Positions 32,557 to 60,562 of a stretch of 64,000 nucleotides of DNA are shown in pieces. The notes beneath the pieces were generated by a model. The model saw nothing but the letters and a program-made list of their open reading frames with translations. It was not told the origin of the DNA and searched no databases. Each line of letters opens with the position of its first letter. The stretch's first letter is position 1. The stretch lies in the NCBI GenBank assembly GCA_050253415.1, contig JBFWJC010000006.1, forward strand, positions 124,702 to 188,701. Direction: 5' to 3'. This DNA is from Pedobacter sp. GTDB lineage: Bacteria; Desulfobacterota; Desulfuromonadia; Desulfuromonadales; Syntrophotaleaceae. The position numbers and the translations under genes were made by a program.

Positions 32557-34006
32557 TGCCCCGGGCTCCCAGCGCATCCATCAACTCACGTTTCAGCGCC
32601 TCGCGCGTCTCGGCAACACTGGCAAGCATCGCCTTGTACTCCGCCAACAGTTCCTCGGGATCACCGTGGTCATCCTCGACGGTGTTGGGATTCTTGATAT
32701 CAAGGTTGTAGCCGTTTGCCTTGATCTGATCGACGGAGACCTTCCATGCTTGTTCGGTCTCTTTCCGATCCTCCCACCAGGCTTTTTCGAAATTGAACTC
32801 CTCAATACGCATCGGCTTGGTTTTGGAGTAGCTCTTGTACCCTTCGGGATACGGGTGCTCGTAGTACCAAACCTCTTTGGTCGGCTCCCCCTTGGTAAAG
32901 AACAGCAGGTTGGTCTTGATGCTTGTGTAGGGATTAAAGACACCATTCGGCAGACGCACGATGGTGTGCAGGTTGCATTCGTCGAGCAGCTTTTCCTTGA
33001 TCCGGGTCTTGACGCCTTCGCCGAACAGGGTGCCGTCGGGCAAAACGATCGCGGCGCGGCCACCATCCTTTAGCAGGTGCATGATAAGCACCAGAAACAG
33101 ATCCGCGGTTTCACGGGTACGAAACGCAGCTGGGAAATTAGCCTCGATGCCGTCCTCTTCGGTGCCTCCGAAAGGGGGGTTGGTGACCACAACATCGACC
33201 CGGTCCTTGGGGCCGTAGTTACGCAGGGGACGCGATAGTGTGTTGTCATGCCTGACCTGTGACGGAACTTCGACACCATGCAGCAGCATGTTGGTGGTGC
33301 AAAGTAGGTGCGGCAGTGCCTTTTTCTCTACGCCGTAAATCTGTTTTTGCAGGACCTGTTCACCGGCGGCGGTATTGACGTACTTGCCGCGGACATAATC
33401 GATGGCGCAGGTGAGAAAACCGCCGGTACCGCAAGCCGGGTCAAGGATTTTCTCTCCAAGTTTCGGATCGACCATGTCGACCATAAATCGGGTGACGGCG
33501 CGCGGGGTGTAGAACTCCCCGGCATTGCCGGCACTTTGCAAATCTTTGAGGATCTGTTCATAGAAATCGCCGAACAGATGACGGTCCTCGGAGCGGTTGA
33601 AGTCGATCTCCTCGATCTTGTTGACCACCTGGCGGATGAGGGTGCCGTTTTTCATATAATTGTAGGCATCCTCGAAAACCGATTTGACCACCCGGGCGCG
33701 CCCGTTGGCGCCGACAGTCAGATCTATCTCCTTGAGGGTCTTGAACAGGGTGTTGTTGATGAATTCGAGCAACTCTTCGCCAGTAATTCCCTCGGGATCA
33801 GCGGCCCAGTTGCGCCAGCGCAGCTTTTCGGGAATCGGGGAGACATAGCCGTCCTGAAGAAGTTCTAACTCCTGCTCCTGGTCATCGAATATTTTCAGAA
33901 AAAACATCCATACAAGCTGACCGATGCGCTGGGCATCACCATCGACGCCTGCGTCTTTGCGCATGATGTCCTGAATCGTTTTAATAATGGTACTGCTGAG
34001 GGTCAC
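32549..34006 (-). CDS. hsdM: Type I restriction methyltransferase subunit
   Basis: GEFYTPR, DPACGTGGF, NPPF. Confidence 0.95.
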   Translation of the reverse strand: MTLSSTIIKTIQDIMRKDAGVDGDAQRIGQLVWMFFLKIFDDQEQELELLQDGYVSPIPEKLRWRNWAADPEGITGEELLEFINNTLFKTLKEIDLTVGANGRARVVKSVFEDAYNYMKNGTLIRQVVNKIEEIDFNRSEDRHLFGDFYEQILKDLQSAGNAGEFYTPRAVTRFMVDMVDPKLGEKILDPACGTGGFLTCAIDYVRGKYVNTAAGEQVLQKQIYGVEKKALPHLLCTTNMLLHGVEVPSQVRHDNTLSRPLRNYGPKDRVDVVVTNPPFGGTEEDGIEANFPAAFRTRETADLFLVLIMHLLKDGGRAAIVLPDGTLFGEGVKTRIKEKLLDECNLHTIVRLPNGVFNPYTSIKTNLLFFTKGEPTKEVWYYEHPYPEGYKSYSKTKPMRIEEFNFEKAWWEDRKETEQAWKVSVDQIKANGYNLDIKNPNTVEDDHGDPEELLAEYKAMLASVAETREALKRELMDALGARGNA

Positions 34007-54308: not shown

Positions 54309-56225
54309 TCAGCCAGGTCCGCCCAGTAACCCCGTCAAAGGTTCATGGTGATAAATCGCCAACCGGTTACTGGCCCGGGTGATGGCCACATACAGCAGGT
54401 TTTTGCCGATTTCCGTATCCGGATAAGCCTTCCGGGTCGGATTCCACAGAATCACGCCGCCGAATTCCAGCCCTTTGACCTGGTGGGCGTTGGTGATGAG
54501 CACGCCGGGCTCAAAGGTCAGCGAACCGGTCTGCAGGCGCACTCCGGGGAGATCCTTGATGGCAGCATAGATAGACTGAGCGTCGCCTTTATAGCGGCAA
54601 ATGATGGCCGTCAAGCTCTTGGGTTCCTTTGCCAGCAGAACCCTCAACGATCGCTTGAGATGCGCCAACGACTCGTCCCGGGTTTCCCACTGGTGAAAGC
54701 GCGGATCGGGGCCTTCGTTGACTACTTCGGTGACCGGACGGCCCGACACCCGGGAAGCCAGGGCCATGATTTGGGCTGTTGAGCGATAACTTACACAAAG
54801 TTCGCCCGACGATAAGCCCTGTTTTTTCAGATCCATCTGAAAGGCAGAAATGCCCTTGGAATCCACGAAATCGAGGATCTTTTGTTTTTCATCCGCACAC
54901 ACCGTCAGGCTTCTGTGCTTGGTGGTGGCCAGGGTCAGGGCTTTTAATTCGATCAGCGAAAGATCCTGCGCTTCATCGATCAGAATGTGGTCATACCATC
55001 CATACGCTTCCTGGTAAACGTCCTCCCCGTGGCACCGAAGCTGGAGAAGGTGCAGCAGTATCCCGCTATCGTCAAACGAAAGCTCCGGTGACGGCTCCTC
55101 AAACATTTCCGCACCGCTTTGCGCCAGGCGCTCTATCTGCCGCCGGTCCGAAAGATGTCTGGCCAGCAGGTCAGTCCGGCTGTAAAACGCTGCCAGGTCG
55201 GCAAAAGGGTTTTCCTGGACTTTCGTCGCATGTACATATTCGACCAAAGCATGATACATCCCGGCCTGCTTTTTCAGCGATCCCAAGCCTTGCCCCTGGC
55301 TGGCCGAGAACCTGGCGATCACGCCAAAGGCGCGCAAGGCTTTCGCCGACCAGGAATGAAAGGTCTCCACCGGCAATCGATCGGTCAGCAGATCGATCGA
55401 GGTCTGACGGATATAATCACACAGGGATCGGTTAAACATGACGACCAGGCAACGGTGCGGCCGGAATCGTTCCGGCTGGTTGAATAACAGATACGACAGC
55501 CGGTGCAGCGCAACCGTGGTCTTGCCGCACCCGGCGCCACCGGTCAGATACAGACAGCCATCGTGCTGCCTGGTAATCAGGCCGAACTGCTCTCGGGAGA
55601 TCAGGGAAACGATGTCTACCATCCGGTGGTCCCCCACAGCCTCTTTCCGGACGGCACTGGCGTTTTGCCTGCCCTGCTCCACCCAGCCGTCATCGGTCTT
55701 TACCAGGGTGCCCACGCCGGTCTGGATGGTCAGTAATTCGCGTCTCTGAATGCCGTAGGAGATCTTCTTTTCGATCATCCCGCAGCGTTCCCGCCCACCG
55801 ATATCATCCTCGTATTCCTCCCCCTCTTCCCAATCGTAATAGAGCTTGGATACCTCGGCCTTGCGCCAATCGACAACGATAACCCGCGACCCAACTACAA
55901 GACTCTGCTTGCCAAATAACAGGTGCTTCCGGCCAATACGCGGATCTTCATCATGAATGACCACCCCGGCAAGATAGGGAGACTGGCCCTGCTCAAAGGG
56001 AACCAGATACTTTGCAGGGTCATACTGTGACAGCCGGCGGATTTCAACAGTCAGACGATCCTTTTCCCGAGGATCGACCGACTCCAGGCGTTGAACTTCA
56101 AGGTCTTTTATCGTGCGGTCATGTTCGGACAACTGCCTCTTGCGGTCGGCTTGAAAACTGTCGACAGCGTTACAGACCTCCAAAAGGCGCTGTTCTTCCT
56201 GCTGGGTGAATGTGTGGGGCATCAT
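54309..56225 (-). CDS. HelD-like SF1 (UvrD) helicase/ATPase
   Basis: VVDWR..VSKLYY, DIVSLISREQ, GGAGCGKTTVALHR, IDEAQD, SYRST, KGLEF, YVAITRA. Confidence 0.85.
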   Translation of the reverse strand: MMPHTFTQQEEQRLLEVCNAVDSFQADRKRQLSEHDRTIKDLEVQRLESVDPREKDRLTVEIRRLSQYDPAKYLVPFEQGQSPYLAGVVIHDEDPRIGRKHLLFGKQSLVVGSRVIVVDWRKAEVSKLYYDWEEGEEYEDDIGGRERCGMIEKKISYGIQRRELLTIQTGVGTLVKTDDGWVEQGRQNASAVRKEAVGDHRMVDIVSLISREQFGLITRQHDGCLYLTGGAGCGKTTVALHRLSYLLFNQPERFRPHRCLVVMFNRSLCDYIRQTSIDLLTDRLPVETFHSWSAKALRAFGVIARFSASQGQGLGSLKKQAGMYHALVEYVHATKVQENPFADLAAFYSRTDLLARHLSDRRQIERLAQSGAEMFEEPSPELSFDDSGILLHLLQLRCHGEDVYQEAYGWYDHILIDEAQDLSLIELKALTLATTKHRSLTVCADEKQKILDFVDSKGISAFQMDLKKQGLSSGELCVSYRSTAQIMALASRVSGRPVTEVVNEGPDPRFHQWETRDESLAHLKRSLRVLLAKEPKSLTAIICRYKGDAQSIYAAIKDLPGVRLQTGSLTFEPGVLITNAHQVKGLEFGGVILWNPTRKAYPDTEIGKNLLYVAITRASNRLAIYHHEPLTGLLGGPG

Positions 56226-56782
56226 CGTGAACCTGTATAGGGAAACTCTACGGTCGGGTGGACGCAAAGACTATAAATCTCTTGCAGGATATACCTTTTT
56301 CGTGAGCCGTGATAATTGATGGAAGATTGTCGGGCACGATTTGTAGCGTTTGCCGAAACAAAGCGGAGTGATGTTATACGCAAAAAGAGCGGATAAGGCT
56401 AGCCCATCCGCTCCATCCTAATCCATCTCGGCCAAATCTAGTGCTTCGCGTTGCTGAGCAACCTGTGCTCGAAGGATTTTAACCGATGCGGTTGGTTCCT
56501 CACCACATCCTACAAAGAGCAATAGCCCTGAATGCGACCGATCATATCCATTATTGCGGTCGGCACCATGACCGAATCCTACAGGCTGTGCAAAATATGC
56601 TTAAATATAAAAAACAAGGTGATAGGTAAAACATTAAATGGCCAATCTCCTTCAATTTGAGACCTGTTTTCACAATTGCCAGATTCCTAATACAACATCC
56701 TTAAGAGTGAAATGTCTGTCTTTAGGCCAACTAGTGATACTAATTCATATTTCGCAAAATAACCGGGACGTTGGGAGGGCAT

Positions 56783-57775
56783 ATGAATTCACCACCCGAG
56801 CAAAGGTACTCAGAGCAGGAGATTAGAAGCATCATTGACGGATACAGGTCTCTAGACCAGGGCGGGCGCCTATCAGCACTTATGGCCAACATTACCCGCT
56901 GCAGGCAATGCCACGCTATGATTTCCTTAGGGACGAATAAGCCCATTAATGCTCTTTCGCGTCCCCTTCCTCTCCCCCGATTGTCCGACGACAATGCCTT
57001 TCGAAATTACTGCATCAAAATCAAACGAGACGACACCTATCTGCGGCACCAATTTACGTCGGGAAGGTCTGCAGAAAAAGTGATCGCAGCACTTGGACCA
57101 AGTAAATTTTCAATCGGACTTCTCCCCTGGACAGACCGCTGCATGCTTTACAAAAAAAACAATGGGCGAACAAAGCTCATGGTCATCGGGATCGACTACA
57201 AAAACTTCCCCCCGTTTTTCGACTCTCCCAGGGATCACCAGTTTCCCCTCGACAGCTACCGTAAATCAAACAACATCTGGGGACCTTCATGGCGGCAATT
57301 TTGGCGATATCTACTTGGGACCGCTGAAGACTCGGCAGTTAACCATTTTATCGCTGAAAATGGTGTCTTCTTTACTAATTCAATGCTTTGCTTTGGTGGC
57401 TCCCAAGACCGTACTCATCATGAGGAAGTGTGCTTGACAAATTGCCGTAGCCACATAGCTGAATTGATTTCCATCATACGACCCGATGTGTTGGTATCTT
57501 TTGGAGTTTTGGGATTGCGAAACACTGTTGGTCTTTTATTAGAGCAAAACCCTGACCACCCCCTTCTCAAGAAACTGAATGGAGCAGATATGCCTTTTGC
57601 AGCAATGGAGAAAGCTGTGAAACGAGGAATGGGGGCCAATGATGTTCAAGTTATGTGGGAAGGTCAGAGCGTGGCCTATTGGCCTCTATATCAACCTGCG
57701 CGGCCCAACAGATACCACCGAGACTACGAGGGCTTGAGAGGTCTGCTGGGGGTTAGAGATAAGGACATTGGATAG
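56783..57775 (+). CDS. Uracil-DNA glycosylase superfamily-like protein
   Basis: N-terminal CRQC, MVIGID, FFTNSMLC, C..HI..LI.IIRPDVLVSFG, PLYQP. Confidence 0.6.
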   Translation: MNSPPEQRYSEQEIRSIIDGYRSLDQGGRLSALMANITRCRQCHAMISLGTNKPINALSRPLPLPRLSDDNAFRNYCIKIKRDDTYLRHQFTSGRSAEKVIAALGPSKFSIGLLPWTDRCMLYKKNNGRTKLMVIGIDYKNFPPFFDSPRDHQFPLDSYRKSNNIWGPSWRQFWRYLLGTAEDSAVNHFIAENGVFFTNSMLCFGGSQDRTHHEEVCLTNCRSHIAELISIIRPDVLVSFGVLGLRNTVGLLLEQNPDHPLLKKLNGADMPFAAMEKAVKRGMGANDVQVMWEGQSVAYWPLYQPARPNRYHRDYEGLRGLLGVRDKDIG

Positions 57776-58510: not shown

Positions 58511-60544
58511 ATGTCAAGCATAGGGAAGAAACCAGAATTTAACGAGTTTGTGCTCTTTTCACAGGAAGAAAATATTGCGCTGAACCAACGCAGTTTTGAA
58601 CGAGAGGTCCGTGGTAAAATGGAGACCTTTGTCACCTGTTTGGTGCGTAATAAAGATGTTCAATTGAAACCTGAAGAACGCACCCGACAACTCTGGCTAT
58701 CCCGCTTAATCAGCCAATATGGCTATCCCGCCTCGCGCATTGCGGTTGAGTTCCCGATCACTTTTGGCCGAGACAGTTCGAAGCGTGCAGATATCGTGGT
58801 CTTCGATGCCGACCGCCCAACTGTTCCATACATCGTTATCGAAGTGAAACAGGCCAAACTGAGCGATGGGAAGGAACAATTACGCTCTTATGCTCATGCA
58901 ACTGGTGCCCCTCTGGCAGTCTGGAGCAACGGTGTCCTGGCTGAAGTCTGGCACCGCAAAAATCCCAATTATTTTGTTCCCATTCACTACCTGCCCCATG
59001 CGGACCAGACGATTGAGGATATCGTCGATGAGCCTTGGACCATTCAGACCCTAATCGAAAAAGAGAAGGAGCGCGAACAAGAAGGAGCCAAAGCTCGATC
59101 CTTACGCGAACTGATCGTCGAGATGGAGAACGAAGTTCTGGCGAATGCAGGCGTAGATGTATTTGAAGAAGTATTCAAACTGGTCTTTACCAAGCTTTAT
59201 GACGAAATGTTTCATCACCGGGGAAGGCATCCCTTCTTACGCTTTCGAAACAGCAATACAGCAGCACAACTAAAGAAGGCTATTCAGGCTCTTTTCGACG
59301 AAGCGAAAGATCAATGGCCCGGTGTATTCCTTGAAGACGAGCGCATTCGACTTTCACCCGATCACCTGCAAGTTTGTGTTGGCTCTCTTGAAGAATGGAA
59401 GCTCTTCAACTCCAACCTCGACGTTATCGACGACGCTTTCGAATACCTTGTGAACAAATCATCGAAAGGCGAGAAGGGACAGTATTTCACCCCCCGCTGG
59501 GTGATCGATATGTGCGTGCAGATGCTCAACCCACAAGAACATGAAACTGTAGTCGACACCGCTTGCGGATCGGCAGGCTTCACGGTCCACACCATGTTCC
59601 ATGTCTGGCGCAAAATCATCACAGACCTTGGTTTAGAGGAAAGTCACCTCTTTACGATGGACGCCAAGCCTCAGCGTTGTGAAGATTTTGTGCGGGACAA
59701 GGTGTTTGCTATCGACTTCGACGAAAAAAGCGTCCGTGTATCCCGCTGCTTAAACCTTATCGCAGGAGATGGGGAAACCAACGTTCTTCACCTAAACACG
59801 CTTGACTGGACCAAGTGGGACGAGACAGTAAAACAGGATGAATGGTCGGATACCTATGGCGAAGGCTGGCGACGATTGCGAAAACTGCGTGTCAGGAAGA
59901 AGCAGGCTGATTATCGTCAGTTCAACTTCGACATCCTAATGGCTAATCCACCCTTTGCTGGTGACATAAAACAGTCCGACATGCTGTCTCCTTATGAACT
60001 GGCCCACAAGAGAACCGGCAAACTGGAACGTACTGTGGGACGTGACCTCCTGTTTATCGAACGTAACCTTGACTTCCTTAAGCCCGGTGGGCGCATGGCG
60101 ATTGTGCTGCCTCAAGGGCGGTTCAACAATCTAACCGATCAGCGGGTGCGCGAGTTTATTATGGAGCGGTGCCGCATTCTAGCTGTTGTCGGGCTGCACC
60201 CCAATTCCTTTAAACCTCACACAAACACTAAGACCAGTGTTTTGTTCGTTCAAAAATGGAACGATGACCCGAGCGCTGGGCCACTAAACCCGAAAACGGA
60301 TGACTACAATATCTTCTTTGCTACGCAACAAGTGGAAAGCATTAACAATAGCGGAGAAAAGGTCTATGAGCTAGATGATGATGGAAATCGTTTGCGGGAT
60401 GCGCACGGCCATTTCATTGTTGCACATGACCTTTATAATCACGAAGGACTGACCCGAGACGGGATCGCAGAAGCATTTAAGGAATTTGCAGCGAAAGAGG
60501 CCTTAAGTTTTTTTTGGGGTGCCCCTTCAACAGCGACCGTCTAA
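58511..60544 (+). CDS. Fused restriction endonuclease / N6-adenine methyltransferase (type IIB/IIG-like RM subunit)
   Basis: PEE..RQ, RADIVVF...IEVK nuclease; GQYFTPR, DTACGSAGF, NPPF. Confidence 0.9.
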   Translation: MSSIGKKPEFNEFVLFSQEENIALNQRSFEREVRGKMETFVTCLVRNKDVQLKPEERTRQLWLSRLISQYGYPASRIAVEFPITFGRDSSKRADIVVFDADRPTVPYIVIEVKQAKLSDGKEQLRSYAHATGAPLAVWSNGVLAEVWHRKNPNYFVPIHYLPHADQTIEDIVDEPWTIQTLIEKEKEREQEGAKARSLRELIVEMENEVLANAGVDVFEEVFKLVFTKLYDEMFHHRGRHPFLRFRNSNTAAQLKKAIQALFDEAKDQWPGVFLEDERIRLSPDHLQVCVGSLEEWKLFNSNLDVIDDAFEYLVNKSSKGEKGQYFTPRWVIDMCVQMLNPQEHETVVDTACGSAGFTVHTMFHVWRKIITDLGLEESHLFTMDAKPQRCEDFVRDKVFAIDFDEKSVRVSRCLNLIAGDGETNVLHLNTLDWTKWDETVKQDEWSDTYGEGWRRLRKLRVRKKQADYRQFNFDILMANPPFAGDIKQSDMLSPYELAHKRTGKLERTVGRDLLFIERNLDFLKPGGRMAIVLPQGRFNNLTDQRVREFIMERCRILAVVGLHPNSFKPHTNTKTSVLFVQKWNDDPSAGPLNPKTDDYNIFFATQQVESINNSGEKVYELDDDGNRLRDAHGHFIVAHDLYNHEGLTRDGIAEAFKEFAAKEALSFFWGAPSTATV

Positions 60545-60562
60545 ACGGTCTGTTGAAGGGGC
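60508..60562 (+). other. Candidate -1 programmed frameshift signal
   Basis: In-frame T TTT TTT, 6-nt spacer, GCCCCTTCAACAG/CTGTTGAAGGGGC stem extended by ACCGT/ACGGT. Confidence 0.75.

Follow-up and report, generated by a model that had tools for sequence, protein, structure and literature searches.

Organisation of the RM–S junction

The 64,000-nucleotide (nt) stretch of DNA analysed here (the window; positions 124,702 to 188,701 of contig JBFWJC010000006.1, assembly GCA_050253415.1) carries, on its forward strand, three consecutive genes of a restriction system: a combined restriction and modification (RM) gene encoding a protein of 677 amino acids (aa) (58511..60544; matches to PF13588 at 4.4e-27 and to PF02384 at 7.9e-31), a specificity (S) coding region with two target-recognition domains (TRDs) (60514..61941; 468 bits against the PADLOC Specificity_I model), and a third gene encoding 263 aa (61941..62732), the start of which overlaps the S stop codon. 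With RM taken as the zero frame, S lies exactly in the -1 frame, which is open from 60481, and the two coding regions meet at a slippery heptamer, T_TTT_TTT, that is followed by a putative stimulatory hairpin. We consider it likely, with some confidence, that this junction is a programmed -1 frameshift site at the 3' end of RM, which would yield both RM (677 aa) and an RM-S fusion protein (1143 aa) from the same gene pair.

The heptamer occupies 60508..60514 in the phase of RM, which at this point reads AGT TTT TTT TGG, and the T run extends by one further base (T8, 60508-60515). It is separated by a spacer of 6 nt (60515..60520), constant in length and variable in sequence across relatives, from a hairpin of approximately 18 base pairs (bp) at 60521..60562 that was defined by folding and by covariation. 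The outer stem of this hairpin is a perfect 13-bp helix (60521-60533 with 60550-60562), and the RM stop codon, TAA (60542-60544), is situated in its apical part. Upstream, a Shine-Dalgarno (SD)-like AAAGAGG (60494..60500), which also encodes a conserved Lys-Glu pair, lies 7 nt 5' of the heptamer and is a possible stimulator of the shift; GGAG at -12..-9 is near-invariant in the A1 loci and weak in the G_GGA_AAG loci among the relatives described below. An initial annotation, made from the window alone, had described this same constellation: a heptamer of the form X_XXY_YYZ in the phase of RM, 6 nt ahead of a hairpin whose loop contains the RM stop, with a purine-rich AAAGAGG upstream and an S frame exactly at -1. 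All of these elements were recovered in the sequence at the same positions. It had also placed the start of S at a TTG abutting the hairpin. Such a TTG is indeed present in the S frame of the window (60514), but it is peculiar to T8 variants, and the conserved candidate is instead a second S-frame TTG (60553-60555) within the 3' arm of the hairpin, ahead of which no SD sequence was seen in the window. The predicted transframe product would comprise 668 + 475 = 1143 aa, with EALSFF followed by LGCPFNSDR at the join (predicted junction peptide ...EALSFFLGCPFNSDR).

The 42-nt hairpin folds alone at -29.8 kcal/mol, its minimum-free-energy form in ViennaRNA consisting of 12 bp, a 2-nt bulge, 6 bp and a 4-nt loop, and a 111-nt context gives -47.2 kcal/mol (z = -5.16), a stability reached by 0 of 200 shuffled sequences. 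The T7 string occurs in the window at chance frequency (TTTTTTT observed 18 times, against 17.0 expected), so that the significance of the site rests on the hairpin and, above all, on its conservation in relatives. T8 recurs, with 0 differences, in another assembly of the probable source run, indicating that the run is not an assembler artefact. An Rfam search of 60300-60800 returned chance-level rows only, the element not being a curated family. A reading of the hairpin as a transcription terminator was rejected, there being no T run after it on either strand and no match in a terminator scan.

Distribution of the junction among relatives

Relatives were gathered by a scan of a one-genome-per-species collection, which gave 463 stretches spanning Proteobacteria, Acidobacteriota, Chloroflexota, Cyanobacteria and Verrucomicrobiota, and the best 78 loci were classified. 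The hosts of these 78 are highly diverse bacteria, and the identities are 72-86%, except for one locus at 58%. A T run in phase with RM, a spacer of 6 nt, a hairpin and S in the -1 frame are found together in 61 of the 78, comprising 56 tabulated loci and five that were checked separately (L033, L036, L037, L050 and L058, in which the RM frame is interrupted further upstream); six others (L031, L053, L059, L064, L070 and L072) do not include the RM 3' end. The tabulated set used below contains 57 junctions, i.e. the 56 and the window's own locus, with L060 left out. Within it the run is T7 in 45 loci, T8 in 10, T9 in one and T6C in one, and the longer runs stem from substitution, not insertion, the alignment being gapless and the frame unchanged. 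The RM stop codon, counted from the first T, lies at +34 in 34 loci, at +10 in 13 and at +7 in 10, and all signal-bearing loci have a spacer of exactly 6 nt. In the relative at 58% identity (L056) a U_UUU tetramer precedes, by 6 nt, a stem that covaries. The three features for which the initial annotation had asked that conservation be checked (T run, spacer and covarying stem) are all conserved across the relatives, the spacer in its length.

Other arrangements of the two genes are also found. S starts with ATG in four loci (L013, L014, L025 and L055) and is fused in frame to RM through a different linker in three (L043, L048 and L065). These seven loci have no in-phase slippery site before a hairpin, and their best 44-nt folds lie at -12 to -18 kcal/mol, with the exception of an unrelated hairpin in L043 (-24.6 kcal/mol). 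Fused loci and loci with an independent S start, which the initial annotation had envisaged, exist, but those with an ATG-started S or with a different linker are devoid of the signal; wherever a homologue has S in -1 but lacks an ATG, both heptamer and hairpin are present. The in-frame fusion of L043 (5090-5170) keeps a T7, and it is the inserted linker, ESPPPSLDKGESEAGG, that holds the different, G+C-rich hairpin; the linker of P0002 is nearly the same, and L043 may have arisen by recent fusion from an ancestor that used frameshifting. In two Thiobacillus-type loci (L067 and L076) the S-frame open reading frames (ORFs) are 835 and 757 aa long, with about 300 extra codons, and S may there be fused to the downstream gene.

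The -1 arrangement occurs in at least 18 cultured isolates, in three complete Escherichia coli chromosomes and on a Klebsiella plasmid; Thiobacillus denitrificans and Cereibacter johrii are among the hosts of the system. Three of 5426 complete E. coli genomes carry the three-gene operon with T7 and hairpin (L101 and L102 are E. coli chromosomes), and the same operon with T7 and hairpin is present on a conjugative IncFIB/IncFII plasmid of K. pneumoniae (L100, NZ_LR890357.1). The plasmid and two of the three chromosomes share the same RM and S protein accessions, the third chromosome matching at 99.9%, and no differences in T-run length, of the kind expected of phase variation, were found among these near-identical enterobacterial copies. 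In the Klebsiella and E. coli copies the Prokaryotic Genome Annotation Pipeline (PGAP) starts S at the TTG within the hairpin. On the flanks of the enterobacterial copies lie a type I toxin gene of the ptaRNA1 family, a frameshifted recombinase and a DUF262 gene.

Selection on the heptamer and its replacement

Across the 57 tabulated loci, T is found at the seven successive positions of the heptamer in 57, 57, 57, 57, 57, 57 and 56 cases, and the heptamer is in phase 2 in all 57. The codon ahead of it encodes Ser, Gly or Pro, yet is always NNT, compared with a mean third-position T content of 16% elsewhere in the same RM genes. Phe codons elsewhere in these genes are TTT 500 times and TTC 1520 times (25% TTT), and the two nearest conserved Phe codons vary, being TTC in 42 and 34 of the 57 loci, respectively. 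Selection acts on the nucleotides of the heptamer beyond codon usage.

In a number of homologues the T run is replaced altogether. L017 has an intact RM that ends CTG GGA AAG CCC TAA, in which G_GGA_AAG forms the heptamer, with the hairpin 6 nt after it and an intact S in -1. A scan of metagenomes for the hairpin arms preceded by a base other than T at heptamer position 6 produced 18 matches, of which 11 are true homologues and seven are unrelated palindromes. In the 11 homologues the RM frame is open for at least 593 nt and ends ...EFAKKEKLSFAGKP at its stop codon; the heptamer is G_GGA_AAG in seven, G_GGA_AAA in three and G_GGG_GAG in one. Each of these heptamers is in phase and 6 nt from the hairpin, RM stops at +10 and S follows in the -1 frame. 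The motif classes H_HH.U_UU.Y, which includes U_UU.U_UU.Y, and V_VV.A_AA.R are described as the most efficient in E. coli in PMC4066793. The presence of G_GGA_AAG/A in place of the T run, at the same phase and spacing, favours ribosomal over transcriptional slippage, and this exchange of one canonical slippery motif for another argues for ribosomal frameshifting, since it fits such a process and would not be predicted by polymerase slippage, translational coupling or gene decay.

Covariation of the downstream hairpin

Folded individually, the loci form hairpins of 16-19 bp with a mean energy of -28.7 kcal/mol (range -35.0 to -14.8). The inner stems are clade-specific, with pairing kept (CAGTG/CACTG, GGCCGC/GCGGTC, CAGCGCC/GGCGCTG and GAGGCCC/GGGGCTT). 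When a fixed helix of 15 pairs is imposed, 89.3% of cells pair, compared with 39-64% in slid registers, and compensatory double changes are seen at 7 of the 15 pairs (48 cells); 0 of 500 shuffles reach the observed values. Individual examples include L011 and L054, in which the 3'-arm TTG has become TTA together with a compensating C-to-T change in the 5' arm, and L056, in which the stem GCCCC/GGGGC has become GCTCG/CGAGC. RNAalifold, applied to an alignment of 59 sequences, recovers the outer 9 bp only, because the registers of the inner stems differ between clades, and per-sequence folds and the fixed 15-pair count were accordingly used instead. In a half-swap chimera test native hairpins gave -28.4 and chimeric ones -23.9, 18% of the chimeras being at least as stable; the difference is modest because the outer stem is shared. 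As judged by these patterns of covariation, the hairpin is selected as an RNA structure.

Coding character of the -1 frame and natural fusions

The region between heptamer and internal TTG was compared in 65 unique segments (+7..+44) from 75 junctions, namely the 57 tabulated, the five checked separately, L017, L056 and the 11 from metagenomes. The -1 frame of the 65 segments contains 0 stops, whereas frame 0 contains 63 and frame +1 contains 49. The mean BLOSUM62 score is 2.54 for the -1 frame versus 1.29 and 1.12 for the other frames, and third-position entropy is 1.18 versus 0.90 and 0.83. The -1 frame encodes a conserved peptide, FF-x-x-(R/S/G)-P-F-(D/N)-x-x-R-(L/Y/F)-x-x-L-L-E-G-L-E, in which residue counts among the 57 loci are P 57, F 55, D/N 56, R 52, L 57 and L 53; the zero-frame tail of RM is variable and often absent. 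No ATG, GTG or TTG occurs in the -1 frame between the upstream stop and +12 in 44 of the 57 loci, the exceptions being mostly T8 loci, the window included, in which the run itself makes a TTG at +6. A TTG at +45 (60553 in the window) is present in 49 of the 57 and missing in eight, where TTA, ACG or TCG is found, and three of these eight have no canonical start within 110 nt. The -1 frame appears from this comparison to be translated upstream of any start codon.

Naturally fused relatives provide a further reference. A search restricted to longer proteins gave 60 relatives of at least 1186 aa, nearly all of about 1190-1270 aa, which contain PF13588 and PF02384 and in most cases also PF01420; their hosts include Nostoc, Synechococcus PCC 7502, Pseudanabaena, Thiospirillum and Methylococcales, among others. 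Their junctions (examples are ...LSFFDSSPFDEVKYRALLEGL, ...LSFFVDARPFDAERYAALMSGLE, ...LSFFELGSFNEAKYNALLEGLE and ...LSFFESSPSVTPFDAVKYQQLMDGLE) are colinear with the predicted transframe product, SFF-S-P-R-PFD.... These single-chain RM-S homologues, cyanobacterial and others, typified by 'N-6 DNA methylase' proteins of about 1190 aa, have the same domains in the same order and a junction of the form SFF-xxx-PFD..(K/R)Y..LL..LE, but are encoded in one frame, and of those for which DNA was compared, L043, L048 and L065 are without this hairpin. Their architecture is one that we take to resemble that of AloI and, presumably, CjeI.

Gene products and identity of the system

RM consists of an N-terminal PD-(D/E)xK-type nuclease domain (HSDR_N_2) and a gamma-class N6-adenine methyltransferase (N6_Mtase), with the motifs D...E-V-K, DTACGSAGF and NPPF readable in its translation, and is matched over its full length by the PADLOC model MTase_I PDLC03034 (1246.8 bits). 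The Specificity_I match of S extends over 34-471, matches in two stretches were also obtained, and S contains an internal repeat ('RLDSQF' / 'RIDAQYF'), as expected of a subunit with two TRDs. The closest solved structure to RM by sequence is RM.BsaXI (E 1.2e-18, methyltransferase domain only). Both PADLOC, whose models used here derive from restriction-enzyme collections, and PGAP label the genes as 'type I' M and S. A classical type I restriction-modification system was, however, rejected as the identity of the locus, since the conserved operon is RM-S-263 aa and no HsdR-like ORF is adjacent. Membership of the methylation-associated defence system (MADS) was likewise rejected: MAD2 and MAD5 are homologous to RM and S, but the scores here (322 bits for MAD2 and 94 for MAD5) are far below the NCBIfam cut-offs of 720 and 400, and no match to other mad genes was found among six neighbouring ORFs.

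RM carries nuclease and N6-adenine methyltransferase on one chain, as is characteristic of type IIB enzymes, which cut on both sides of a bipartite site, and the closest parallel is with BsaXI and BcgI, which combine an RM chain of this composition (nuclease and gamma-class N6-adenine methyltransferase) with an S chain bearing two TRDs. BsaXI assembles as (RM)2S according to PMC11997821. It differs from the present system in that the similarity of its RM is limited to the methyltransferase domain and that a conserved third gene is found here. The 263-aa gene follows S in 48 related loci, so that the unit is a three-gene operon, and we regard the locus, on the domain content of its predicted products, as a type IIB-like restriction system comprising RM, S and the 263-aa protein.

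The 263-aa protein has no family in Pfam, NCBIfam, PADLOC or PHROG, its Atlas clusters are all annotated 'hypothetical protein', and Foldseek returned nothing at E <= 0.001. Its AlphaFold2 model has a predicted local distance difference test score (pLDDT) of 75.7. R230-N231-x3-H235 (RNxxxH) is invariant in 13 of 13 aligned sequences, and there are weak structural matches to HEPN toxins (1wwp, 8xdj, 5yep and 7ae2; Z 4.6-5.6), in a VIA-align comparison in which all rows reached only Z 4.6-6.2. The protein is possibly an RNase of HEPN type that acts as a partner of the restriction system.

Proposed mechanism and alternative explanations

In the mechanism that we favour, a ribosome positioned on AGT TTT TTT, with tRNA-Phe in both the P and A sites, would be paused by the hairpin 6 nt downstream, and in a fraction of cases would slip back by one base, both tRNAs being able to re-pair perfectly with UUU. 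Slipped ribosomes would read the S frame and produce the RM-S fusion of 1143 aa, whilst unslipped ribosomes would stop ten codons later to release free RM of 677 aa. One mRNA would in this way supply RM and RM-S, which together would give two RM per one S, as in type IIB enzymes with a two-TRD S. The proposition of the initial annotation that the locus encodes both RM and RM-S (~1143 aa) by -1 recoding is supported by the comparative evidence above; the shifting itself, its efficiency and a role in setting the RM:S ratio are inferred.

The arrangement might alternatively represent two ordinary genes joined by translational coupling, with S made only from TTG 60553, the hairpin masking this start until opened by the passage of ribosomes along RM, and the T run simply encoding a conserved Ser-Phe-Phe end of RM. 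The position of the TTG at +45 in 49 of 57 loci, its choice by PGAP in the Klebsiella and E. coli copies, the RM stop within the hairpin loop in 34 of 57 loci, the ATG that starts S at about the same position in distant relatives, and the PADLOC and NCBIfam S profiles, which begin near the TTG, are all in keeping with this explanation. It leaves unexplained, however, why all 57 loci have TTT TTT after an NNT codon when TTT usage is 25%, why the run can be replaced in phase by G_GGA_AAG/A at the same 6-nt distance, and why the -1 frame before the TTG is stop-free, protein-like and colinear with natural fusions. Moreover, eight of the 57 loci lack the TTG (three of them any canonical start within 110 nt), the window TTG is without an SD, and in 23 genome and 11 metagenome loci the RM stop codon precedes the hairpin, at 35-38 nt from the TTG. 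We consider coupling as the sole source of S to be unlikely, although the TTG may supply some free S.

If, instead, RNA polymerase were to add one U within T7-T9, an in-frame RM-S mRNA would arise with no ribosomal shift. UUUUUUU is noted as prone to RNA polymerase slippage in PMC4066793, and this also counts against a ribosomal interpretation of our site; ten loci have T8 and one T9. Set against this are the eleven homologous loci in which GGGAAAG, GGGAAAA or GGGGGAG stands in the right phase for tRNA re-pairing, and the invariance of both the phase and the 6-nt hairpin distance, neither of which transcriptional slippage needs. A run of T7 is, in addition, short for efficient transcriptional slippage. 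The process could contribute at T7-T9, but not at GGGAAAG, and as the full explanation it appears very improbable. It had been offered in the initial annotation, together with phase variation, as the alternative to recoding, and both are disfavoured by the replacement of the T run by G_GGA_AAG/A in 11 loci. That the site reflects gene decay, an error of assembly or phase variation, in which a fused RM-S has lost or gained a T, we find scarcely credible. Fused homologues exist, the window derives from a metagenome bin, and two relatives, considered below, show indels beside the run; yet S lies at -1 to RM in 61 of 78 loci, which represent many phyla and include isolates and complete genomes, T8 and T9 arise by substitution without change of frame, the enterobacterial RM and S accessions are identical (the fourth copy at 99.9%), and the RM and S ORFs are otherwise intact and conserved. 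The possibility raised initially that T8 might be an assembly slip finds no support either in the second assembly, which keeps T8, or in the recurrence of the -1 relation.

Several considerations weigh against the frameshift interpretation itself. The transframe protein is a prediction from sequence comparison, and S could come from the TTG at +45 by independent or re-initiated synthesis, in which case the fusion could be a minor product. Conservation of the 5' arm and of the TTG is due in part to RNA pairing, so that coding and structural constraints are entangled. Some relatives evidently work with a fused chain only or with separate chains only, which makes the need for two products unproven. 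The loci are related by horizontal transfer, and their counts do not represent independent events. Finally, two loci depart from the pattern: L060 (4984-4990; Pannonibacter, 4.4-Mb contig) has T6, with S at +1/-2, and L034 (4877-4890; from a metagenome bin of long reads) is fused in frame solely because one C is inserted behind its T7, with the hairpin kept (-31.8 kcal/mol). These indels could be homopolymer or long-read sequencing errors, or real indel variation.

A more elaborate form of the frameshift proposal treats the shift as a stoichiometry device. About half of the ribosomes would shift, giving RM and RM-S at roughly 1:1 and hence a covalently tethered (RM)(RM-S) complex equivalent to the (RM)2S of BsaXI; the hairpin would mask the internal TTG, so that free S would not be made; the family would have moved repeatedly among fused, frameshifted and split states; and the HEPN-like third partner would travel along. 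We put this forward tentatively, as a possibility that we judge somewhat less than even in its entirety.

Genomic neighbourhood

Upstream of the RM operon the window encodes a UvrD/NERD-type helicase of 652 aa on the reverse strand (54309-56267), with GajB-like and DRT-helicase PADLOC matches, and a 334-aa protein on the forward strand (56771-57775) with a weak match to the UDG superfamily; this region resembles a defence island. On the reverse strand, at about 32879-33583, the window has a second ORF similar to N6-adenine methyltransferases (open frame 488 aa), which is 30-36% identical to parts of RM and is probably an ordinary type I hsdM.

Relation to known recoding systems and implications

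To our knowledge, only few -1 frameshifts have been proven in bacterial genes outside insertion sequences and phages. A literature search found no report of frameshifting between the RM and S subunits of a restriction enzyme, including in the available portions of PMC3711429 (GeneTack, where part of the list of 146 clusters may sit in a supplement outside the search), PMC4066793 (Sharma et al. 2014) and PMC5009743 (a 2016 recoding review). Judged by general background and by the reviews PMC5009743 and PMC4066793, tau/gamma synthesis from E. coli dnaX is a close parallel: a cellular gene with an in-phase heptamer, a stem-loop approximately 6 nt downstream and, possibly, an SD-like stimulator, from one mRNA of which two products are made at a set ratio and enter one complex, as we would suppose for RM and RM-S. 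The two cases differ in that dnaX uses A_AAA_AAG and its shifted product is the shorter, whereas here the motif is U_UUU_UUU or G_GGA_AAR and the predicted shifted product is longer, gaining a whole second subunit. OrfA-OrfAB of the IS3 and IS1 insertion sequences resembles the present junction in that a -1 shift at a heptamer with downstream structure fuses consecutive overlapping ORFs, and U_UU.U_UU.C and G_GG.A_AA.G occur among the insertion-sequence motifs in PMC4066793; the product there is a transposase rather than a restriction enzyme, and the downstream ORF here may be translatable alone.

The comparative evidence strongly supports a programmed -1 frameshift signal of canonical type in a new gene family, and the family offers a natural series for the evolution of such signals, extending from U_UUU_UUU and U_UUU_UUC through G_GGA_AAG and G_GGA_AAA to a bare tetramer and to fused and split genes. 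If the interpretation is correct, annotation pipelines that call two genes, with S starting at the hairpin TTG, would miss the main S-containing protein, and cloning S by itself, from the start given in annotations, may yield the wrong protein. It would also account for the supply, from one message, of both chains to a restriction enzyme requiring two RM per S, and would, should the stoichiometric proposal hold as well, represent a widespread case, in cellular and plasmid genes of many phyla, E. coli and Klebsiella included, in which -1 recoding builds a hetero-oligomeric defence enzyme.

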